Assembly: GCA_964619725.1 (NCBI GenBank)
Contig: CAZUFC010000013.1
Location: forward strand, 46,570-110,569
Origin: an uncultured bacterium
GTDB taxonomy: Bacteria; CSSED10-310; CAZUFC01
Direction of reading: 5' to 3'
DNA length: 64,000 nucleotides
Below are positions 10,179-47,478 of this stretch, in pieces. The position numbers were made by a program, and so were the translations under genes. The notes beneath the pieces are model-generated. The model was not told the DNA's origin. It saw nothing but the letters and a program-made list of their open reading frames with translations, and searched no databases. Every line of letters starts with the position of its first letter. Position 1 is the first letter of the stretch.

Positions 10179-12200
10179 ATGAATGCCCAGCAAGCGAAAA
10201 GTCGAATCGAGGAATTAAGAAAAGAAATTAATCATCATAACTATTTATATTACATCAGAAATGAACCGGCAATCCCGGATGCGGAGTATGACGCTCTAAT
10301 GCGTGAGCTGATGAAACTTGAGGCGGAGTATCCCGAATATGACAGTATCGATTCTCCGACCAGGAAAGTGGGCGCTCCGCCGGTTGGGGAGCTGGGCAAG
10401 GTGGAACATACTTCGCCCATGCTGAGTCTTGATGCTTCATTGAATAAGTCTGATGTTATTCAATTCGATCAGCGCATAAAAAAGGCTGCCGGAGTCGACC
10501 GAATCGAATACTCGGCAGAACTGAAATTAGACGGTTTATCCGTTGAACTCGTCTATGAAAACGGCCTTTTCATAAGGGGCTCTACCAGGGGAGACGGAAG
10601 AATAGGAGAAGAAGTCACCTTGAACCTCAGGACGATTCGATCGCTGCCATTGAGGTTATGGGAAGAAGGGATACCTGTTCCCGGCATGTTGGCGGTTCGC
10701 GGTGAAGTCGTTATGCCTGTGAATGCCTTTCTCCAGTACAATAAGCAACTTACTGAAAAAGGCGAAGCCCCTTTCGCTAATCCTCGTAATGCAGCCGCAG
10801 GTTCGCTCAGACAGATTGATTCCCGCATAACGGCTTCACGCCCCCTGGATATCTATGTCTACGATGTTATGACAGCGGAGGGCGCAGCCTTCTCTTCCCA
10901 CTGGGAAATACTGGAGCAGCTTCCGAGATGGGGATTCAAAGTGACGGAACATTGGAGAAGGTGCAACGACATCAGGGATGCCGTAACTTTCCATTCTGAG
11001 ATAGAAAAAATACGAGAAGACCTCGAAGCTGAAATAGATGGAATAGTGATAAAAGTCAACGACTTGAAGTTGCGTGATCAATTGGGTTCGCGTGACAGAA
11101 GTCCGCGATGGGCCATGGCGTTGAAATTTCAACCCAGACGAGAAACTACCGAAGTTCTGGGAATTGCCGTTCAGGTCGGAAGGACAGGTATTTTAACTCC
11201 AGTGGCTATTCTGAAACCGGTGGATGTTGGAGGCGTTACTGTCAGTCGGGCCACTCTTCATAACTTGGATATCGTCAGGAAATTGGACGTCAGGGTCGGC
11301 GACAAGGTCAAAGTAATCAGAGCAGGTGATGTGATTCCTGAGATTGCCGAGGTCGATAAATCCGCAAGGCGCATTGAGAAAAAAGAATTCAATATGCCAG
11401 ATGCGTGTCCGGTTTGCGGGTCTGCCGTCACCAGAGAAGGAGCTTATTATTTTTGCTCAGGCGGGTTGGCCTGTCCCGCTCAATTGAAAAGCTCCATTAC
11501 TCATTATGCATCCCGGTATGCAATGGATATCGCCAATCTTTCGGAACAAACTGTCGGCCTGTTCGTCAATTTAGGCATAGTAAAACACGTTTACGACCTT
11601 TATAATCTGAAAAAGGAAGAAGTTGAAGAACTGAAAGGATGGGGCCCCAAAGCGACCCAAAATTTGTTGCAGGCCATTGAACAAAGCAAATCCAGACCTC
11701 TTTCTCAATTTATTTACGCCCTGGGCATCAGACATGTGGGTACGCATGTAGCTCAATTACTGGCTGAAAATTTCGGAACCCTCGATGCGCTTATGAATGC
11801 AGATCGCAATACTTTGGAGTCGATTGATCAAATAGGGCCGCGAATCAGCGAGAGTATTGTGTGCTTCTTCTCAGAAAAGCATAACAGGCAGACCATAAAA
11901 GCATTGATGGATTCAGGCGTGAAACCGTTGCCTGTCGAGAAATCAGAATCAAAGAATGGTGACGACAAGAAACCGTATAACCTTTCCTTCATCTTTACAG
12001 GGGGCCTTGAGTCAATGACCAGGGATGAAGCCAAGCGAAAAGTGGAGGCTTTAGGCGGACGCGTCGTTAATTCCGTCAGTAATAAAACAGATTACGTCGT
12101 TACCGGAAAGAATCCGGGGTCTAAACTGAGTAAAGCGAGAAAGTTGAATCTAAATGTTATATCTGAACAGGAATTCATCGATATGGTGAATTCCGGCTGA
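10179..12200 (+). CDS. ligA: NAD-dependent DNA ligase
   Basis: ELKLDG, TRGDG, RGEV, FANPRNAAAGSLRQ, VGRTG, RAGDVIP, C4 zinc finger, BRCT domain. Confidence 0.98.
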   Translation: MNAQQAKSRIEELRKEINHHNYLYYIRNEPAIPDAEYDALMRELMKLEAEYPEYDSIDSPTRKVGAPPVGELGKVEHTSPMLSLDASLNKSDVIQFDQRIKKAAGVDRIEYSAELKLDGLSVELVYENGLFIRGSTRGDGRIGEEVTLNLRTIRSLPLRLWEEGIPVPGMLAVRGEVVMPVNAFLQYNKQLTEKGEAPFANPRNAAAGSLRQIDSRITASRPLDIYVYDVMTAEGAAFSSHWEILEQLPRWGFKVTEHWRRCNDIRDAVTFHSEIEKIREDLEAEIDGIVIKVNDLKLRDQLGSRDRSPRWAMALKFQPRRETTEVLGIAVQVGRTGILTPVAILKPVDVGGVTVSRATLHNLDIVRKLDVRVGDKVKVIRAGDVIPEIAEVDKSARRIEKKEFNMPDACPVCGSAVTREGAYYFCSGGLACPAQLKSSITHYASRYAMDIANLSEQTVGLFVNLGIVKHVYDLYNLKKEEVEELKGWGPKATQNLLQAIEQSKSRPLSQFIYALGIRHVGTHVAQLLAENFGTLDALMNADRNTLESIDQIGPRISESIVCFFSEKHNRQTIKALMDSGVKPLPVEKSESKNGDDKKPYNLSFIFTGGLESMTRDEAKRKVEALGGRVVNSVSNKTDYVVTGKNPGSKLSKARKLNLNVISEQEFIDMVNSG

Positions 12201-31249: not shown

Positions 31250-31987
31250 ATGGAAGGCATTGCTCATACACTATGGATTACCGAAAAAGTTAATCAGGTC
31301 CTGGGCGGTCCCGCCTCAGCGCTGCTGACTGCTTTGGGCATTCAACATGATACGGCGACTCCGTTGCCCCAGCACCTCATCATCACCTGGGAAATAATAA
31401 TTATCCTGACCATACTGGCGTATGTCTCTTCAAAAAGAATTTCCCTCATACCCAAAAAATTACAACATGTCTGGGAATTATTCGCTCAGGTCATTCTGCA
31501 ATTGCTTCGGTCTGTACTAGGACCAAAAGGAGATAAATATTTTTCCCTGATTGCTTCTATGGCATTGTTCATCCTTATCGGTAATCTGATGGGCTTGTTT
31601 CCCTTCAGTTCTTCTCCCACCGCCAACCTCAACACCACTGTCGCATGCGCATTGATCATATTCTTCTACTACCACTTCCAGGGCATAAAGGAACTCGGCT
31701 TGAAAAAATACTTGAAACACTTCATGGGACCTTCTCTCATCGCTGCGCCTTTCTTGATTCCCATAGAAACCATCAGTCATTGTTCGAGAGTGCTCAGTCT
31801 GTCCGTTAGACTATTCGGAAATATCATGGGCGAAGATATCGTCATTATCATTATTTTTTCTCTGGCTCCACTGCTGGCGCCCGTTCCCATGATGGCTTTC
31901 GCCATCTTTACCTCCATTCTTCAGGCGTTCATTTTTATCATGCTCTCCATCATGTACCTCGCAGGAGCCGTCAGCCAGGAACATTAA
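31250..31987 (+). CDS. atpB: F0F1 ATP synthase subunit a
   Basis: 'N..GL.P', 'PTANLN', 'IE.IS...R.LSLSVRLFGN', 'LQAFIF..L...Y'. Confidence 0.97.
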   Translation: MEGIAHTLWITEKVNQVLGGPASALLTALGIQHDTATPLPQHLIITWEIIIILTILAYVSSKRISLIPKKLQHVWELFAQVILQLLRSVLGPKGDKYFSLIASMALFILIGNLMGLFPFSSSPTANLNTTVACALIIFFYYHFQGIKELGLKKYLKHFMGPSLIAAPFLIPIETISHCSRVLSLSVRLFGNIMGEDIVIIIIFSLAPLLAPVPMMAFAIFTSILQAFIFIMLSIMYLAGAVSQEH

Positions 31988-32051
31988 AGGATTATTCATT
32001 GAAAGGAATAAGATTTAAAATCAATTTTTGGAACTTCAAGGGAGGAATCTG

Positions 32052-32423
32052 ATGTTAAAAGGACTGTCGATTTTCACGTTAGCTTTAGTTTTCTTGTTCA
32101 TTACAGCAGCCCCCATCGCCGCTCAAGAAGCTCATTCAAGTGCGGAATCAGAATCGGCTATGGACCCCAAAACACTCTACTTTATTGTCGTTGTCGTCGT
32201 GGCAAGCGTATGTATGATGCTGGCCTCTTCCATGGCTATCCTGGGACAGAGCAGAGCTTTGATTACCGCAATCAAAGCAATCTCTAGACAACCCAACGCT
32301 CTTGCCGGCATTCAGACCAATCTGATCATCGGGCTCGCTCTGATAGAATCACTTGCTATTTATGTACTGCTCATCGCTCTGATTCTCTTCTTCGTGAATC
32401 CTTTTACGGAATACCTGGTCTGA
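32052..32423 (+). CDS. atpE: F0F1 ATP synthase subunit c with N-terminal leader
   Basis: GGAGG RBS; 'GQ', 'RQP', 'GLALIESLAIY'; signal-like N-terminus. Confidence 0.93.
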   Translation: MLKGLSIFTLALVFLFITAAPIAAQEAHSSAESESAMDPKTLYFIVVVVVASVCMMLASSMAILGQSRALITAIKAISRQPNALAGIQTNLIIGLALIESLAIYVLLIALILFFVNPFTEYLV

Positions 32424-32976: not shown

Positions 32977-33186
32977 AAGAGAGTGTTACTTTCCTTACTG
33001 ATGGAATAAGGATTCAAGTAACGGATTTGCTTAGGAAGCTCAGGAAGAATTGTAAAACCGATTTTGGTTAGCTAATGAAAGATATTTATAGAAACGCATG
33101 GATTCAAATGAGCTAGGCAGAGTGATTTTATGAAAATTGCTTTATTGATGAAATTTTTTTTTACAGAAGGGAGTTGAGTAATTATA

Positions 33187-33942
33187 ATGCCTAAAGAAAA
33201 GGATATGGTCGATTTTATGCTTTATCTTTTATCCGCCGGCAACTTTGTCCAGGAACAGAGCATCCCAACACACAAGGACAGGTTGTACAACACTTTCGGA
33301 AAGACTTTTCTAAGAGGGATCAAATCGCTTTCGGTCCTTTCAGGAGCTGCAGCCGATGCCCTGGCAGCCCAAAGGAATAGAGAGGAAGTGAAACAGAAAC
33401 CAGAAGAGGAAAAAATAACGCCTCGTATACAATATACCCCACAGGTCGTCGAAAAAGAACCCAGACCGGCGCCTTCTTACGATTATTCACCGCCGGAAAA
33501 AATGACGATACCCGATACTCAAAAAGAAGAACCGGTCCCAGTGAGACCTCAGAAGCCTTTTGTACGAGTTCGCAAGCACAATAGAGACGAGTCCCGGAAG
33601 AAAACAACGGACACGACCTCAGAGACCTTCGATGCGACGGAAAATGAGGAGCAGCAGATCACCGCAGTTCAGAGTCCTCCTCAGGATGATGTGCAGAAGA
33701 AGCCGGCTGCTGAAGTCCCACAGGAGCAATTCTACAAGATCAAGGAAAACGAAGCGGAAAACAATGACAGAGAGCCTGCCATATCAGGTGAAACATTCGA
33801 AAAGATCAGGGAAGAGGAAAAAGAAAAACTTAAAGAAAAATATCCTCATCTCCAGGATAAAGATTGGAACCGGGGATTGTGGAAGACCTGGCTTGATTTA
33901 GCCGTAAAAAACAGAATCGACGAAATGAAAGCGAAAAGCTGA
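33187..33942 (+). CDS. Hypothetical cytoplasmic protein with Pro/Glu/Thr-rich disordered linker
   Basis: 251-aa ORF with AAGGGAG RBS; no recognised motif. Confidence 0.6.
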   Translation: MPKEKDMVDFMLYLLSAGNFVQEQSIPTHKDRLYNTFGKTFLRGIKSLSVLSGAAADALAAQRNREEVKQKPEEEKITPRIQYTPQVVEKEPRPAPSYDYSPPEKMTIPDTQKEEPVPVRPQKPFVRVRKHNRDESRKKTTDTTSETFDATENEEQQITAVQSPPQDDVQKKPAAEVPQEQFYKIKENEAENNDREPAISGETFEKIREEEKEKLKEKYPHLQDKDWNRGLWKTWLDLAVKNRIDEMKAKS

Positions 33943-34267
33943 ATCCCTTTGTTTTTTTAATGGGCGTAAACAAAAAACTTCATCGCCATTTTCATCTATG
34001 AACTGATTTGTTTTTGTTTATTAAAAGTGAGATAAAGTGATTGGGAATTTCTTTTGTTGAATCTGAATGAGAAGCCTGTTATATCAGATTTTATGTTATT
34101 ATATTATTTTATTTGTTAATTTTTGTCCACATAAACGGCGAATTTTCCCCAATACTGAGTCAGTCTTCGGATTTGCTCAGTCAAAGTATAAGCGCCGCCC
34201 CTGCCTCGCAAATCCTTACCATCCTTGTCTTAAGAAAAATTCGCTCGTTTATGGATCAAAAACCGCA

Positions 34268-34320
34268 GTGACTGTCCGGCATTAAATTTTGAATCGAGAA
34301 TCGAGTTTGTGGACAGTCAC
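34268..34320 (-). repeat. 53-bp element with perfect 10-bp terminal inverted repeats
   Basis: GTGACTGTCC...GGACAGTCAC; reverse complement nearly identical to 63893-63945 and 63952-64000. Confidence 0.85.
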
Positions 34321-34364
34321 TTGTTAAGAATATTTAATAGTATTATTTTATAATTCATTAAACA

Positions 34365-34417
34365 GCGCCTGTCCGCAACGAATTTTTAACTCAGCATGCC
34401 GTGAGGCGGACAGACGT
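34365..34417. repeat. 53-bp element with related ends but different core
   Basis: GCGCCTGTCCGC...GCGGACAGACGT, same length as the neighbouring element. Confidence 0.55.
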
Positions 34418-34504
34418 TGCGAGTTTCCGGCTCGGAAACAAGAAAATCCGCAGCCTGCGAAGCATTGTAGGAAATCGCCGTTTAAGGACAAAAACAAGGT
34501 AAAT

Positions 34505-36502
34505 TTAATGCACGATCACGCCTGGTGGGATTTCGCCGGGGAATTCAGCGAGCGTAATTGTTTCATCATTTATTCCGGCTGCCAGAATCATCCCTTCACT
34601 CATGCCGTGTTTCAGTTTTTCAGCTTTCAAGTTAGCGACGAAGAGGACTTTTTTTCCAATCAGTGTTTCCGGTTGATAGGAAAGTCCGATTCCAGCCAGG
34701 ACGACTTTCTTGCCGTTTCCGGCGTCGAGCGTTATTCTTAAGTGTTTTGCAGCATCTGTTACTTTTTCTGCGCCGGTGATTTCAGCGACTCTCAAGTCTA
34801 TTTTCAAAAAATCTTCCATTGAGATGCTGGGTTTGGCGAGCATTTCTTTCACGTCTGAAATATTGACGTTATTATTTTTCTTTTCAGAGGCATATATCAT
34901 TTTTGAGAATTTATCGTTATTGGGGGAATTGATCAAGCGGAAGAAGGGTCCGATTTTATGATTTTCCAGATTGAATTTATGATCGTTCCATGTCAGGGGT
35001 TTGATTCTTAGTATTTTCTCAGCTTCCATAGCAGTATGAGGTAATATGGGTTTTATAAAAACCACAAGCGCTTTGCAGAAATTTAGAACCGCTGTCGCTA
35101 TTTTCCTCGCCTCCTGTTCATCCTTTTTTACCAGCCGGGGAAGGTCGGCTTCTTTAAGGTATTTTATTCCCAGATCGGCGACTTTACGAATTTCTTCGAT
35201 TGCAGAATTAAAATTGAGGCTGAGATAGTGAGTAAACAGAACCTGCGCTTTTTGTGAAATGTATTTTTCCAGTTTCGTTTGTTTTTCGGGCAAATTTGCA
35301 ATACGACCTTTTAAATTTTGATGAATAAAATTGATCAGGTTGTCGAATAGCCAATTCAGACGATCTGTCAGGTCCTCCTTGATTAGAGCATAAAATTCCT
35401 TTTCATTGAATTCGGCAGGTTTGATTGAAGAGGAGGAATTTGCAGCAAAGAAATATCTCAATGTTTCCGGATTAAAGAATTTTTCAAATACTTCAGCGGA
35501 TATGTCGGGTTTGTCATCTGATGATGAACCGACGATTACATCTCCATGCGCCACGATTCTCTCAGGCAGCGCAAAACGAGTGCCCATAAGAATTGACGGC
35601 CAGATCAGTGAATACATGTACCAGTCCTTGCTGCTCATGAAATGAAAAATATGTGACTTTGAGTTGGACCAGTGTTTCGCGTTTTTTCCTTCTATTTTGT
35701 CCAGATATTCTTCCGTTACAGCCGGAAAAGAAGCGGCGATATCAAAATATTCGTTGAAATACAAAGATTCCTCTCCTGGAATCGCAAATCCTAAATAATT
35801 CTGGTCACGGCTTATCTCCGCATCGGGCAGTTCTTCTTCCAGTTTTTCTTCAATATAACTTTTCACTTCTCCAGGAAAACTCTTCGGGTTCTTCAACCAT
35901 TCTTTTAAACGATGTTTATACTCGGAAATCTTATAGAAATAATGCACTCTCGTCTTTTTCACATACTCGCTGCCGCAGCGGGCGCAGGCGTCTCCCGGTT
36001 CTGATTCTTCAATTGCAACGCCGCAAAAAGGACAAGCGGATGTGCCGTTGAAAATTCCTCTGCAATGAGAGCATATTTTTTGAGATTCGAAGGGGGAAGC
36101 AAATAAATTACATGTTTCACAATAATTTTGTTCGGTTTCGGTTCTGTAAACGTGGTCAAGTCCTCTGAGCCGCCGGAAGAAAAGTTCAATAAAGTGTTTC
36201 GTTTTTGAGATATGCGTGGAATAAAGTCCGTCGAATTCTATTCCGAATTTTTGAAAAAATTTCCTTTTTTCTTCAATGACAGCGCTCAATTTCTTGTCGA
36301 TTTCTTCTTTATTTTCGTCAGTTTCAGGTTCATAAGACGGACTGTGGACCTGCAGGGCGCAGGTGAAAACAGAATCCTGGCTGGTCAGATTGAGAAACCG
36401 GTTAAAGATATCCGCTTTGACAAATTTGTACAGATCCTCAATGGAAAACTCTCGATCAATGGACGGAACGGAACATGTAATAATTATTTTGTCATCCTTC
36501 AA
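34505..36502 (-). CDS. Methionyl-tRNA synthetase paralogue, catalytically degenerate
   Basis: Colinear with MetG: 'AD...RF', zinc knuckles, 'HYF.K.S', 'ISRD..Y.GF.IP', 'LRYFFA', 'KPILP', C-terminal 'DF.K.DLRV..I...NL....SEGM.LAA'; HIGH and KMSKS absent; TTG start at 36502 after AGGGGAG. Confidence 0.85.
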   Translation of the reverse strand: MKDDKIIITCSVPSIDREFSIEDLYKFVKADIFNRFLNLTSQDSVFTCALQVHSPSYEPETDENKEEIDKKLSAVIEEKRKFFQKFGIEFDGLYSTHISKTKHFIELFFRRLRGLDHVYRTETEQNYCETCNLFASPFESQKICSHCRGIFNGTSACPFCGVAIEESEPGDACARCGSEYVKKTRVHYFYKISEYKHRLKEWLKNPKSFPGEVKSYIEEKLEEELPDAEISRDQNYLGFAIPGEESLYFNEYFDIAASFPAVTEEYLDKIEGKNAKHWSNSKSHIFHFMSSKDWYMYSLIWPSILMGTRFALPERIVAHGDVIVGSSSDDKPDISAEVFEKFFNPETLRYFFAANSSSSIKPAEFNEKEFYALIKEDLTDRLNWLFDNLINFIHQNLKGRIANLPEKQTKLEKYISQKAQVLFTHYLSLNFNSAIEEIRKVADLGIKYLKEADLPRLVKKDEQEARKIATAVLNFCKALVVFIKPILPHTAMEAEKILRIKPLTWNDHKFNLENHKIGPFFRLINSPNNDKFSKMIYASEKKNNNVNISDVKEMLAKPSISMEDFLKIDLRVAEITGAEKVTDAAKHLRITLDAGNGKKVVLAGIGLSYQPETLIGKKVLFVANLKAEKLKHGMSEGMILAAGINDETITLAEFPGEIPPGVIVH

Positions 36503-36789
36503 ATCGATTCTCCCCTTTCTGGCGCTGTTACGAATAATACTTCCCGGAAAAGCCGGAGCTTTCCGGAGACACAACAGCATATACAAGTGTTTTTTGAAAA
36601 GCAAGAGCTTAGGGTGAAAATAAGGGAAGAAATTATGCAGCAAAACATCGCAGATTCTTAACATTCCGGTCATCAGCAGCGATAGGCGAATAAATCGAAG
36701 GGGAAGAAATCATTTGATTTCGTCAGTTGAATTCTCTAAGATAATCTGAAGCTTATCGATTCCGCAAACATTCGGGAGAGAGATCGCAC

Positions 36790-37443
36790 ATGAGATACAT
36801 GAAACGTTACGAAAAACACATTCTGACTTTCGTGGTCATGCTTTTTTACATCGTCGGATATTTTGTCATAACTTCAGCCGTCTCTTCGTTGCCTTCTCAT
36901 ACGCTTTTTTCGAGTTGGGATCGTGAGTTGCCATTAAGGCCAGGATTCATTTATGTCTATCTTCAGGTCTATTTCATCGTTTTTTTGCCTGTCTTTCTGA
37001 CGGACAGGATATCCCTGATCAGGAAATTCGCTTGCGCTTATATGGTCACGATGATTTGCAGTTATGCGCTTTTCATCATATTTCCCGTAGTAAGACCCAG
37101 GCCTGATGTTGAGCTCGTTAGTTTCAACAGTTTTTGTCTATCCGTGCTATACCGGTTAGATCATCCTACCGGATGTTTTCCCAGCCTTCATGTGGCTATG
37201 GCCACTTTGGCCTCTCTCTGCACCTTCTCCGTCAACCGCGCTTTCGGCATTTTTTCCTGGATAATGACATTGCTGATCGCTTTATCCACTTTGTTTATAA
37301 AGCAACACTTTGCAGCCGATGTCATTTCAGGAGCTTTTTTGGCCTGCCTCTCTTACTTGCTCGTTAAAAGCGAAATAAAGGCTATCGTTTTACAACCGCT
37401 CTTCAAAAGAACGGCTTCCGCTGAACAGGGAAATCATCCTTGA
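36790..37443 (+). CDS. PAP2-family membrane phosphatase/phosphotransferase
   Basis: 'P...RP', 'D.P..CFPSLHV', 'STLF.KQH...DV..G'. Confidence 0.9.
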   Translation: MRYMKRYEKHILTFVVMLFYIVGYFVITSAVSSLPSHTLFSSWDRELPLRPGFIYVYLQVYFIVFLPVFLTDRISLIRKFACAYMVTMICSYALFIIFPVVRPRPDVELVSFNSFCLSVLYRLDHPTGCFPSLHVAMATLASLCTFSVNRAFGIFSWIMTLLIALSTLFIKQHFAADVISGAFLACLSYLLVKSEIKAIVLQPLFKRTASAEQGNHP

Positions 37444-37628
37444 CTGAGCAACCTCTTGACGCCTGGCTGAAAAACAACTGTTACCGGTAAGGAAACCATA
37501 CGTGCGCGTCAAAAATTTTGTGGGGCAAATCATTATGTGCTAAACTTGTCGTCGGGTAAGTCGTTGATGAGGAACCTTCTGAAAAACAGAGAATTTTTTG
37601 GTAATTCTTCTTAAGGGAAAGGCTGGAT

Positions 37629-38882
37629 ATGAATCGAACGAGTTTATTCGCTCAAGTTACAATTTTTTGCATCATCACCGCCGGCGGGCTCCTTCAAGAA
37701 ACTGATGCAAAAAACCTTGATCTGATTAATGAAAAATCCCTATCTGAAATCAGGGAATCAGACAAATTGACGACATCAGACCAGGAATACTACATCGCTG
37801 ATTTTTTCATTTCTGAAACAGGGATTTTAAGAGAAACAGAAACGCCGACATATCTTCCCAGCGTTACGCCCTCCGCTCCTCCTTCATTCACTTCCACGCC
37901 CATTCCCACAATAACAGTTTCCCCTTATTGGAGTCCAACCGGAGCAATTACTCCGCCTACCGAAACTCCGGTTGAAAGTCCCACTTTTTCATCAACTCCT
38001 ACGGCCTTTTTCACCCATTCCCCCACCAGTACGAATACTGCAACGCCGACACCGACTCCAACGGGTTTTTCAACGGTTACTGAAGTTCCTACCTTGCCGA
38101 CTGCAACGGCCACAGCGAGCCCCACTTTTTCATCCACGGGGACGCCATATCCGACTACAAGCGTTACTTTAACAAATACGCCCGATGAAACGGCGACGCC
38201 TACGCCCACAGTATCCTCATCAGGAACTCCTGTTCCGACGTTAATCCCGACAAATGCCTTCACCTTTACATCCACTCCGACAGAGACAATGACGTTTTCG
38301 CCTACCGGCACGGCAGTCGTTACCCCCACCGCTGAATTAACCCGGACAATCGCTCCTACGATGAGTCAAACTCCAACGCCACGCATTACGTTGACGCCCA
38401 CATTGCCTCCTTTAGGGGTTATTCTTGAGTTATCGGAAGAGGACGATTTTTGTTTCAGGACGGGCGATCTTTTTCGACTCGATGCCTGGATAAGCAATCC
38501 AGGTCCCGAAGAGTATGAAGGAGTTCCTTTCGTTGTATTGCTTGATATTGACGGAGAGTATTGGTGGTATCCGGAGTGGAGCAGTGATTTTACATATGCA
38601 CAGGTTGAGTTGCCGAGTGGAACGAAAAAGTTGAGGATTCTGGACTTTATTTGGCCTGACGATCCTTCGGAAGAGGATGACGTGAGAATATACGCCGCTC
38701 TTTTAAATTATGAATTGACTGATTTTTTCGCTCCTGAGGGGGATTACGCCGGATACGATTATGTTGAATTCGACTATGGTTGCGATTGTCCCGGTTTTCA
38801 TCCGGAACAGAAAGAGGGTCTTTTGAGAGAACGGACTGAAGCGAATTCGCCGGCCCGGGAGCTCCCGTTTTTCACTCAATAG
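37629..38882 (+). CDS. Secreted Thr/Pro-rich protein with globular C-terminal domain
   Basis: Signal peptide, about 190 aa of TPT/SPT repeats, C-terminal 'LGV.L...F..GD...L.....NPGP....P.FV.LD..G.YW..P.W'. Confidence 0.75.
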   Translation: MNRTSLFAQVTIFCIITAGGLLQETDAKNLDLINEKSLSEIRESDKLTTSDQEYYIADFFISETGILRETETPTYLPSVTPSAPPSFTSTPIPTITVSPYWSPTGAITPPTETPVESPTFSSTPTAFFTHSPTSTNTATPTPTPTGFSTVTEVPTLPTATATASPTFSSTGTPYPTTSVTLTNTPDETATPTPTVSSSGTPVPTLIPTNAFTFTSTPTETMTFSPTGTAVVTPTAELTRTIAPTMSQTPTPRITLTPTLPPLGVILELSEEDDFCFRTGDLFRLDAWISNPGPEEYEGVPFVVLLDIDGEYWWYPEWSSDFTYAQVELPSGTKKLRILDFIWPDDPSEEDDVRIYAALLNYELTDFFAPEGDYAGYDYVEFDYGCDCPGFHPEQKEGLLRERTEANSPARELPFFTQ

Positions 38883-45849: not shown

Positions 45850-47478
45850 ATGACATCAAAAAAACAACGGCATAAATTCACTATTCATAAATCTTTCAAA
45901 TCAAACCGCCTGTCATGTCTGCTGATCCGGCTTCTTGTTTCCATCTTGTTTCTTCTGAAATTCAATCTGGTTTACGGTTCTCCCGCACCAGAGGATAAAT
46001 CAACGTTAATGCTGGAATTGCAGAATGACATTTCAAAACGGAAGGCCCATGAAAATCTAATAATGAATCCGTCAGCAGAGGATCAGGAGGGACTCTTCAA
46101 ATTTTATTTTGTTTTATTCATGGATAACGTCAGTTCTGAAAATGAAAATACTGCCCGTCATTATTTGGCTGAGTTTTACGAAGCGATAAATTGCGATCGG
46201 AATGCCATGGAGCATTGGAAAGCAATCTTAAGGTCTGACCCTCACGATGCTGCAGCGCAGCTCAGTTTATTCGATTTATATCTTTCACAGAAGAAGTTCA
46301 GCGGCGCATTGGAGGTTTTTTGCGCGGGAGCGGAAGGGTGCGCATTGGATAAGGCTGGAATGAATGAATACTTCATCCGGCTTCAGCGGTTGTTCGAAAC
46401 CTTTTTAAAAAGGAAAGATAAATCGGACAACGATTCTGAGAAGAAAAAAATGGAGAACATTCTAACCGGATTATGGCTTTATTCCAGATGGAATAACAGG
46501 GAAGAGGCGGAATTATTACTGAGAAAAAGTCGGACAGTTTTCGAACGGGCAGCCTATAAAAGATTAAAAACGAAATACAGGGATATTGAAAAACACAAGA
46601 ATTTTCAATTATCAAGTAAAGGGAGTGCGGAACGATTAAGGCTTGAGGACCTCACGGATGTGAAGTCGCTTGATTTTTCACGCTGTCGCCGGAGTGAAAC
46701 GCTGGATGATGAAATTAATATTTTTGAAAGAATCAGGCAATGGACGCCGAAGGAGATTCCTGTATTGAATAATCTTGCGGTTTTATATTTCAAAAACGGG
46801 GAATGTCGAAAATCACTGGATTCGTTGATCGAAATCGTGAATTTAAGTCCTTTTTATAAAATCGGATGGGACAATTTGATCCTGGAAATAACGGCTCTTC
46901 AAACGAATAATGACCTTAAGGATTTTTACAGATGGAAAAAAATGGAGCTTCAATTAATGGAAAAGAAGGCCGAAAGCGATTTTACATTATCATCAGCCGT
47001 GCAATTTGAAAAAGAATATCTGGAATCATCCGCTCCGGAGTTGCAAAAAACGCGCAAACAAAAACCAGATAACTATTTGGAAAGTTCTAACGCATTGGAA
47101 TGGTTTACAGGAAGACCAGCTTACGCCAAAAAAGGCTCGTCATTGAAGAAATCGCCCTCACCATCAGCAGCCACGGTTTACCTGGTAAGGACTGACGAGC
47201 GTGTTGAAGTATTGGATATTCATAGGAACTGGTGCAATGTTGAGTTTAATAAAGGAAACGGCCGGACAGGCTGGCTGCATTTCGACGATCTGTTGATTTC
47301 CGCTGTCGTTAAATATGATAACGTCATCGTTGAATTTCCTCGATTAACCAGCAAGAAAGCAGGCCGACTGAAAGAAGGACATCATGTACGATTGCTCGAA
47401 AGGGTCGATGAATGGATCAGAATATCCGTTCTCGAGACGGGAGAAAAAGGCTGGGTTAAAATTACAGGCTTGAAATAA
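45850..47478 (+). CDS. Exported TPR protein with two C-terminal bacterial SH3-like domains
   Basis: TPRs 'LNNLAVLYFKNGE..KS'; SH3b 'VEVL.....WC.V.....G.TGW' and 'L..G..V..L....EWIRI.....G..GWV'. Confidence 0.7.
   Translation: MTSKKQRHKFTIHKSFKSNRLSCLLIRLLVSILFLLKFNLVYGSPAPEDKSTLMLELQNDISKRKAHENLIMNPSAEDQEGLFKFYFVLFMDNVSSENENTARHYLAEFYEAINCDRNAMEHWKAILRSDPHDAAAQLSLFDLYLSQKKFSGALEVFCAGAEGCALDKAGMNEYFIRLQRLFETFLKRKDKSDNDSEKKKMENILTGLWLYSRWNNREEAELLLRKSRTVFERAAYKRLKTKYRDIEKHKNFQLSSKGSAERLRLEDLTDVKSLDFSRCRRSETLDDEINIFERIRQWTPKEIPVLNNLAVLYFKNGECRKSLDSLIEIVNLSPFYKIGWDNLILEITALQTNNDLKDFYRWKKMELQLMEKKAESDFTLSSAVQFEKEYLESSAPELQKTRKQKPDNYLESSNALEWFTGRPAYAKKGSSLKKSPSPSAATVYLVRTDERVEVLDIHRNWCNVEFNKGNGRTGWLHFDDLLISAVVKYDNVIVEFPRLTSKKAGRLKEGHHVRLLERVDEWIRISVLETGEKGWVKITGLK

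Follow-up and report, generated by a model that had tools for sequence, protein, structure and literature searches.

A full-length methionyl-tRNA synthetase-like protein with replaced catalytic and anticodon-reading residues, encoded alongside a canonical metG in an uncultured bacterium

We describe a gene in a 64,000-nucleotide stretch of DNA from an uncultured bacterium (lineage CSSED10-310; CAZUFC01), namely positions 46,570 to 110,569 of contig CAZUFC010000013.1 (here C13) in the assembly GCA_964619725.1, which is referred to as the window throughout. The gene lies on the minus strand and encodes a 665-residue protein, here called pseudo-MetRS, which has kept the length and domain order of methionyl-tRNA synthetase (MetRS), its zinc-knuckle cysteines and its C-terminal OB-fold domain, and in which the sequence motifs that serve adenylation and the residues that read the anticodon are replaced. 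A canonical metG was found in the same genome, and a dead aminoacyl-tRNA synthetase (aaRS)-fold protein is thus encoded beside an active paralogue. With moderate confidence, we read the gene as a non-catalytic MetRS paralogue that is kept for the binding of tRNA 3' ends or other RNA, or as a scaffold.

The family assignment is straightforward. Three Pfam domains, standing in MetRS order, were detected in the protein: tRNA-synt_1g (PF09334; 192.7 bits against a cut-off of 20.1, E = 1.1e-56), Anticodon_3 (PF19303; 30.8 bits against 23.5, E = 3.1e-07) and tRNA_bind (PF01588; 63.9 bits against 27, E = 1.5e-17). The NCBIfam metG equivalogs span the protein from end to end, all of them under their cut-offs (PRK00133, 392.7 against 587; PRK12267, 236.9 against 598; TIGR00398, 227.7 against 336.35), and the closest solved structures are bacterial MetRS chains (6wq6_A, E = 4e-70; Escherichia coli 1p7p_A, E = 2e-54). 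Pseudo-MetRS is equal in length and domain order to canonical E. coli-type MetG (PDB 1P7P/1QQT for the core, 6WQ6 for the full length), aligns with it colinearly across residues 5-540 and has the zinc-knuckle insert and C-terminal OB domain in common with it, but differs in the replacement of HIGH, KMSKS, most residues of the methionyl adenylate (Met-AMP) pocket and the anticodon readers, as well as in its sub-threshold equivalog scores. The initial annotation of this DNA had proposed a full-length, uninterrupted open reading frame (ORF) colinear with MetG, and the 665-aa frame, the order of the Pfam domains and the alignments to structure chains all bear this out.

Substitutions were read from the gap-free N-terminal HMMER alignment to 1p7p_A, whose chain index follows the conventional numbering of the E. 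coli enzyme. When aligned by HMMER with solved MetRS chains, the protein has SVPSIDREFSIED in place of ALPYANG..HLGH, CALQVHS in place of CADDAHG, LYFNEYFDIA in place of YFYVWLDAP and SSKDWYMY in place of GKDIVYFH. The KMSKS motif has become SSSDDK in a loop that is three residues shorter, as seen both in the 1p7p_A alignment and in the motif columns of 155 homologues, and aligners differ on whether the remaining Lys of this loop pairs with Lys335 or with Lys332. The motif replacements that had been proposed from the DNA letters (HIGH, DAHG, YVW.DA, GKDI, KMSKS and the anticodon Trp) were without exception recovered in the alignments to solved chains. Residue by residue, the catalytic changes comprise Tyr15Ser, His21Ser, Gly23Glu, His24Asp, Glu27Lys, Asp52Gln, Trp253Tyr, Ala256Ile, Pro257Ala, Tyr260Phe, Gly294Ser, Asp296Lys, His301Tyr, Tyr325Asp and Lys332Ser. 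In the available portion of PMC6038951, binding of the phosphate, ribose and adenine is attributed to the HIGH histidines, the Gly/Asp ahead of the FH motif, a Glu and the KMSKS loop. The 16 residues of the Met-AMP pocket derive from PDB 1PG0 and are listed in the part of PMC10535265 that was available; 13 of them are replaced here, including Tyr15, Asp52, Trp253 and His301, and Pro14, His323 and Val326 are kept.

These positions are nearly invariant among homologues. Our homologue alignment held 155 proteins, made up of the 149 listed phmmer matches besides the query and six matches of a word-indexed search, and counted over the sequences covering each column, the canonical residue is present in 104/105 for His21, 105/105 for Tyr15, 111/111 for Asp52 and 140/140 for His301; the sole other outlier in the His21 column among the 155 is P0117, which is discussed below. 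Within residues 1-345, pseudo-MetRS keeps 2/15 conserved ligand columns and 55/102 of the other conserved columns (Fisher p = 0.004), and when the HIGH, KMSKS and ribose positions are added to the ligand set the counts become 3/20 and 54/97 (p = 0.001). The losses are therefore targeted to ligand contacts rather than spread over the catalytic body. With the motifs and the Met-AMP pocket lost, methionine adenylation by the predicted protein is not plausible and appears very unlikely, in agreement with the earlier proposal that it is non-catalytic.

The anticodon-reading residues show the same picture. MetRS reads the anticodon with Asn391, Arg395 and Trp461 (Table 4 in the available part of PMC10535265), and each of these columns is invariant in 59/59 near-full-length canonical homologues, which were hand-picked from the 155 (alignment A1) and served as our set for the comparison of identity by domain. 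In pseudo-MetRS, Asn391 corresponds to Trp384 and Arg395 to Asn388, and Trp461 is lost, its position aligning with Pro455 or Arg456 depending on the aligner. Specific recognition of tRNA-Met is thus predicted to be very unlikely, and binding to this tRNA in particular is not supported, since all anticodon-reading residues are replaced.

In the connective-peptide insert, four CxxC motifs are found at residues 128, 144, 157 and 173; among the 59 canonical homologues, the inner four cysteines are present in 59/59 and all eight in 21/59. The OB domain keeps 30/36 conserved columns, and the C-terminal 100 residues of the protein align without gaps to the Aquifex Trbp111 chain 8vtz_A (E = 1.3e-21). 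Identity between the query and the canonical homologues was 24% in the catalytic domain (canonical pairs, 41.5%), 20.5% in the anticodon domain (canonical pairs, 25.9%) and 36% in the OB domain (canonical pairs, 39%), giving an OB-to-catalytic ratio of 1.53 compared with a canonical median of 0.96; such a ratio is reached by 0.35% of 1711 canonical pairs. End branches in domain-wise FastTree trees followed this gradient. The catalytic end branch of the query measured 2.15, approximately four times the median of the others (0.51, maximum 1.04), the anticodon-domain branch 1.58 (median 0.89, maximum 1.59) and the OB-domain branch 0.87 (median 0.51, maximum 2.11); the rate of change in the OB domain is close to normal. 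The preservation of the four CxxC motifs (8/8 cysteines) and of the OB domain that had been noted at the outset was upheld by these comparisons.

A co-crystal study of Trbp111 offers a possible role for the retained domain. In the available part of PMC11286949, Trbp111 is described as a very stable dimer that recognises tRNA only by capturing the terminal 3'-CA, through contacts of Glu32, Lys33, Lys73, Pro74, Arg75, Ile77, Phe78, Ser82 and Met85. Within this pocket, as given there, Lys33, Lys73, Ser82 and Met85 are identical in pseudo-MetRS and Ile77 is replaced by Leu. Binding of tRNA 3' ends by the OB domain is, on the strength of these alignments, plausible but not assured. Compared with members of the Trbp111/CsaA/Arc1p/EMAPII family, pseudo-MetRS would likewise bind tRNA without charging it, but its OB domain remains joined to a complete dead synthetase body.

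The open frame has clearly been kept by selection. Across the 665 codons, 42 stops were expected from base composition and none was found (P ~1e-19), and the other five frames contain between 23 and 45 stops each. The in-frame coding score lies at the 87th percentile among 3345 long ORFs of the genome. The open frame, the strong ribosome-binding site and the good codon usage argue against neutral decay, and the proposal that the frame is maintained rather than neutrally decaying was in this respect sustained.

A second, canonical metG, which the initial annotation had recommended looking for, was found on contig C27 of the same bin and is the only canonical MetRS there. It encodes an 810-aa protein with HLGN and FSKS motifs, which scores 484.5 bits on PF09334 and carries Anticodon_3 and a C-terminal B3_4 domain but no tRNA_bind domain. 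Two tRNA_bind domains were detected in the genome, one in pseudo-MetRS and the other in a stand-alone frame on contig C48. The latter is a Trbp111/CsaA-like tRNA_bind gene at C48:22690-22971 (132-aa open frame, 107 bits), and most of the phylum's genomes have a comparable gene standing alone.

In order to place the two MetRS proteins, we built a tree of 75 rows (LG+G4, quick search). Pseudo-MetRS falls in a 33-row clade of E. coli-type enzymes (SH-like approximate likelihood ratio test, SH-aLRT, 98), within which so long a branch is placed only tentatively; its end branch of 1.54 is the longest in the tree, where the median is 0.52. The resident MetRS belongs to a 13-row clade (SH-aLRT 98), in which it groups with the enzyme from the one other genome of 9 Mb in the phylum. 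The two proteins are 23-24% identical, and this together with their separate clades rules out a recent duplication of the resident metG. Judged by this tree, the pseudo-MetRS gene would instead have arisen as a paralogue long ago or have been acquired horizontally. The initial annotation had also raised a heterodimer with the true MetRS; this idea has lost ground, since the resident enzyme is of another clade and has B3_4 in place of a Trbp111-type dimerisation domain with which pseudo-MetRS could pair.

Non-catalytic aaRS paralogues are known, including HisZ and the HisRS-like domain of GCN2, and they have defined partners and a wide phylogenetic distribution. Pseudo-MetRS resembles them as a synthetase fold without synthetase chemistry beside an active enzyme, and differs from them as a singleton with no known partner. 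We propose that an E. coli-type MetRS gene, horizontally acquired or left over from an old duplication, would have turned redundant beside the resident metG, and that the redundant copy would then have lost ATP binding, methionine binding and the reading of the CAU anticodon. Selection would have preserved the whole polypeptide, with its two-zinc insert and much of its Rossmann and helical scaffold, and the OB domain best of all. The product would fold like MetRS, bind two zinc ions and dimerise through the OB domain, with which it would also grip tRNAs or other RNAs by the single-stranded 3'-CA end but not charge them, so that the protein would serve as a tRNA-end binder, chaperone or scaffold. 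Dead synthetase paralogues are known for a few amino acids and are informative about the recruitment of translation enzymes to regulation. If pseudo-MetRS proves to be expressed and to bind the ends of tRNAs, it would reveal which MetRS parts remain useful once catalysis is gone and would provide a natural, separable test of the Trbp-type mode of 3'-CA capture; the weight of the case is limited to one gene from one uncultivated genome with no orthologues found. In the open-access literature, we found no full-length MetRS in which recognition of ATP, of methionine and of the anticodon had all been lost but the zinc sites and OB tail kept.

Several observations weigh against this proposal. In the 3'-CA pocket described in the accessible part of PMC11286949, Arg75 is replaced by Glu, Phe78 by Lys, Pro74 by Ala and Glu32 by Ala, and R75A is reported there as the most damaging Trbp111 mutation, with tRNA binding nearly abolished. 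At the position of Arg75, the tails of the 59 canonical MetRS proteins carry Ala in 31 cases, Arg in 22 and Glu in none, and at that of Phe78 they mostly carry Arg. The gene is also AT-rich, with a GC content of 0.408 (2nd percentile) and a third-position GC content (GC3) of 0.423, both in the lowest 2-3% among the genes of the genome, and divides into 0.41 for the catalytic, 0.38 for the anticodon and 0.47 for the OB part, a pattern that fits relaxed selection on most of the protein. Among the sequencing runs containing the gene there was no RNA run. It was found in four DNA runs, all from one microbial-mat study, as contigs of depth 2-8 with 0 differences from the window; because the runs are identical, they hold no polymorphism from which a ratio of nonsynonymous to synonymous polymorphism (pN/pS) could be derived.

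The scarcity of relatives points in the same direction. A phmmer search of 1.84 billion representative proteins returned nothing above 32% identity. As for orthologues, the word-indexed protein search returned only the query itself (P0002), whose 90% cluster consists of one sequence on one contig, and peptide-pattern scans gave no relative in JGI metagenome contigs and only a 75-residue match at 33% in GTDB species genomes. A second MetRS-level match was absent from 13/13 other genomes of the phylum, which are the closest available and none of which belongs to the class of the source genome. The gene may be young or lineage-restricted, and with no orthologue its long-term maintenance is not demonstrable by the ratio of nonsynonymous to synonymous substitution rates (dN/dS). 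Since the nearest sampled genomes are related at the level of the phylum only, the missing orthologues are weak evidence either way about the age of the gene.

The singleton cluster, the best database relative at 32% identity, the longest end branch of the tree, the low GC and GC3 and the lack of an RNA run would all be expected of a functionless relic, that is, a redundant metG copy drifting to loss in a frame so far unbroken. We regard this as unlikely. Drift that replaces more than 20 invariant residues would also have added stops and frameshifts, and none of the 42 expected stops was seen; moreover, the losses are enriched at ligand columns, with structural Gly, Pro and Cys columns as well as the OB domain near canonical conservation, and the gene has an intact ribosome-binding site and a high codon score.

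A further objection concerns the genome itself. The bin comprises 344 contigs with a total of 9.17 Mb, at 90.9% completeness and 6.5% contamination. The GC content of C13, 0.446, is below the median of 0.473, and when the 137 contigs that measure 20 kb or more are ranked by tetranucleotide distance, C13 falls at the 86th percentile. In addition, LigA (window 10179-12200, plus strand) has a second diverged copy on contig C30 with 50% identity, and so have the ATP-synthase a/c genes atpB/atpE (31250-32423, plus strand; 32-35% identity), the second copies lying close together on C30. These duplicates could be real paralogous regions, the genome being 9 Mb in size, or could point to contamination of the bin. 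If C13 came from another organism than the contig with the canonical metG, the two genes would not be paralogues in one cell, but we consider such an artefact highly improbable. The single-copy markers Obg, L21, RecR and RsfS are present only on C13, a family of ~205-bp repeats is common to C13, C27 and C30 and matches 199/344 contigs, and the whole bin has one canonical MetRS; even if C13 were foreign, its host would need another MetRS, since pseudo-MetRS is without catalytic motifs. Because of the markers exclusive to C13 and the repeat common to the contigs, we take pseudo-MetRS and the canonical metG to belong to one genome, with a small residual doubt.

Recruitment of MetRS-like proteins to new chemistry has a precedent. 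A cupin-associated MetRS paralogue family, grouping with archaeal/eukaryotic-type MetRS, was predicted by Aravind and colleagues (available part of PMC2922099), and its members are now known as hydrazine synthetases (cupin plus MetRS-like domain, e.g., PyrN/Spb40). In these, the adenylation residues, including the ATP-binding Lys, are intact and ATP is needed, and a cupin and a lysine N-hydroxylase are either fused to the MetRS-like domain or encoded next to it (PMC2922099 and PMC8664883, as far as their available text goes). Pseudo-MetRS is like these proteins in being a second MetRS-family gene besides the housekeeping one, theirs working outside translation (PMC2922099, same portion), but unlike them it has neither the ATP motifs nor cupin or N-hydroxylase neighbours. 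Among the 48 neighbouring ORFs of the window there was no cupin and no lysine/ornithine N-hydroxylase, and the sole flavoprotein was an amine-oxidase-like gene ~10 kb away. Membership in the hydrazine-synthetase family was ruled out by the lack of both cupin and ATP motif.

It is possible, though doubtful, that the protein was neofunctionalised more broadly, in that a remodelled Rossmann pocket would serve another ligand or reaction and function would reside in the MetRS body instead of the OB tail. The fold is constrained, as seen from the 55/102 non-ligand conserved catalytic columns and the 8/8 zinc cysteines that are kept, and the charge changes are not random: acidic residues were gained at neutral or basic ATP contacts (Gly23Glu, His24Asp, Ile297Asp, Tyr325Asp, Met333Asp and Ser334Asp), and acidic ribose or amine binders became Lys or Gln (Glu27Lys, Asp296Lys and Asp52Gln). 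The hydrazine synthetases lend this idea its precedent, but the recruited MetRS paralogues described in the available parts of the two papers retain the ATP-binding motif and depend on ATP, whereas pseudo-MetRS retains none. In addition, the flanks hold no cupin, N-hydroxylase or gene cluster as a biosynthetic partner, the catalytic domain is the fastest evolving part of the protein, and no orthologues were found in which a conserved new pocket could be seen.

A metagenomic MetRS-like family, P0117 and P0158-P0166, was also noted among the matches. Its members are ~500-534 aa long and form 10 clusters with 57-65% mutual identity and at most 39% identity to canonical MetRS. HIGH is changed to R/Q-x-G/R/H-Q, GKDI to RRD and KMSKS to R-x-A-G, Tyr15, Asp52, Trp253, His301 and all eight zinc cysteines are kept, and there is no OB domain. 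The family thus shows the reverse of pseudo-MetRS, in which the pocket is lost and the OB domain kept, and the zinc cysteines are kept in both; at 23% identity and elsewhere in the tree, it is not orthologous to pseudo-MetRS. It may represent an undescribed non-canonical MetRS paralogue family, and it shows that elsewhere MetRS paralogues can persist without these motifs.

Alternatively, pseudo-MetRS could act in trans, docking on the resident MetRS or another aaRS and either lending its OB domain in the manner of Arc1p or modulating activity in the manner of prozymes or HisZ. The resident MetRS has no tRNA_bind domain of its own, and the two such domains of the genome are those of pseudo-MetRS and of the 132-aa frame on C48; Arc1p captures tRNA 3' ends for MetRS and GluRS by the same OB fold (PMC11286949, available part), and dead paralogues activate live partners in other enzyme families (PMC5201418 and PMC3663545, both available in part). 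However, Pfam revealed no docking module such as a glutathione S-transferase (GST)-like domain in pseudo-MetRS, the two MetRS proteins, from different clades, share only 23-24% identity, and their genes are unlinked, on separate contigs, which leaves such a cofactor or regulator quite unlikely. It is tempting to speculate, and we assign it a similarly low probability, that a bacterial counterpart of Arc1p has here been made from a dead synthetase, whose OB dimer would capture tRNA 3'-CA ends and pass the tRNAs in trans to the resident MetRS or to a small multi-synthetase assembly, with the zinc-bound body as a docking scaffold.

The ORF list gives a minus-strand frame at 34505..36673, corresponding to 722 aa when counted from the first ATG; Pfam and PDB matches start only at residue 60-64 of this form. 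The 665-aa form starts at a TTG at 36502 and ends with a stop codon at 34505-34507, is the version present in the protein collection as P0002, and has an N-terminus that aligns with residue 6 of E. coli MetRS in the 1p7p_A alignment. Inspection of the sequence showed that this TTG is preceded by AAAGGGGAG with a 7-nt spacing. Because of this upstream element, the N-terminus matching canonical MetRS and the stored form, we prefer TTG 36502, which is likely to be the start of the gene. The features of the gene are collected in Table 1. Promoter-like sites number 10 in the region compared with 6.0 +/- 2.4 in shuffles, which is not significant alone, and terminator-like sites number 3 compared with 3.1 +/- 2.0, so that only the position of the terminator-like hairpin is suggestive.

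Table 1. Coordinates of the pseudo-MetRS gene, its parts and adjacent signals in the window.
Feature	Position	Strand	Basis
CDS (coding sequence) of the 665-aa MetRS-like pseudo-enzyme	34505..36502	-	ORF list, P0002, Pfam domains in MetRS order, N-terminal alignment
In-frame 57-codon extension up to the first ATG; probably untranslated 5' leader	36503..36673	-	no MetRS homology, promoter-like site inside
Shine-Dalgarno-like AAAGGGGAG	36510..36518	-	7 nt upstream of TTG start
Sigma-70-like promoter match TTAAGA-18-CATAAT, weak consensus match	36632..36661	-	motif scan
Degenerate HIGH: Ser20-Ile-Glu-Asp23 replacing His21-Leu-Gly-His24 (E. coli numbering)	36434..36445	-	1p7p_A alignment
Connective-peptide insert, two nested zinc knuckles (CETC128, CSHC144, CPFC157, CARC173), 8/8 Cys kept	35975..36121	-	sequence and homologue columns
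Degenerate KMSKS loop Ser-Ser-Ser-Asp-Asp-Lys	35510..35527	-	1p7p_A alignment
Stem-contact fold and helical anticodon-binding domain; helical core kept, anticodon readers replaced	34913..35467	-	Pfam Anticodon_3, alignment columns
C-terminal Trbp111/EMAPII-like OB-fold (tRNA_bind) domain, best conserved part	34508..34807	-	Pfam PF01588, Trbp111 alignment
Intrinsic-terminator-like hairpin and T-run, 44 nt past the stop codon	34437..34461	-	hairpin scan

The neighbourhood gave no indication of function. By NCBIfam and Pfam, no functional link was found in the flanks, which hold the ATP synthase a/c genes upstream and PAP2 and unknown secreted or repeat proteins downstream. An Rfam search over 33000-37500 at E <= 1 gave no match, hence no T-box or other leader, and PADLOC detected no defence system in pseudo-MetRS and its 10 neighbours. 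The sole tRNA gene in the window is a tRNA-Met (CAT) at 747-820 on the plus strand, and at a distance of 34 kb it was judged too remote for a link with pseudo-MetRS.

In the intergenic region 3' of the gene (34116-34321), we observed a copy of the ~205-bp repeat, which resembles a miniature inverted-repeat transposable element (MITE) with terminal inverted repeats and is followed by a GC-rich hairpin. Because of this repeat, the contig depth there, summed across runs, reaches ~3200x compared with ~8x in the flanks. The repeat gave 422 blastn hits in the genome and had no Rfam match at E <= 1. Copies that reach 180 bp or more number 133 and are spread over 96 contigs, many of them at contig ends; on C27, a copy precedes the canonical metG by ~275 bp. 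On the other side of the gene, an ORF at 37629-38882 (plus strand) encodes a 417-aa protein that matches no family and has a long low-complexity region rich in Thr, Pro and Ser; it is probably secreted or located at the cell surface.

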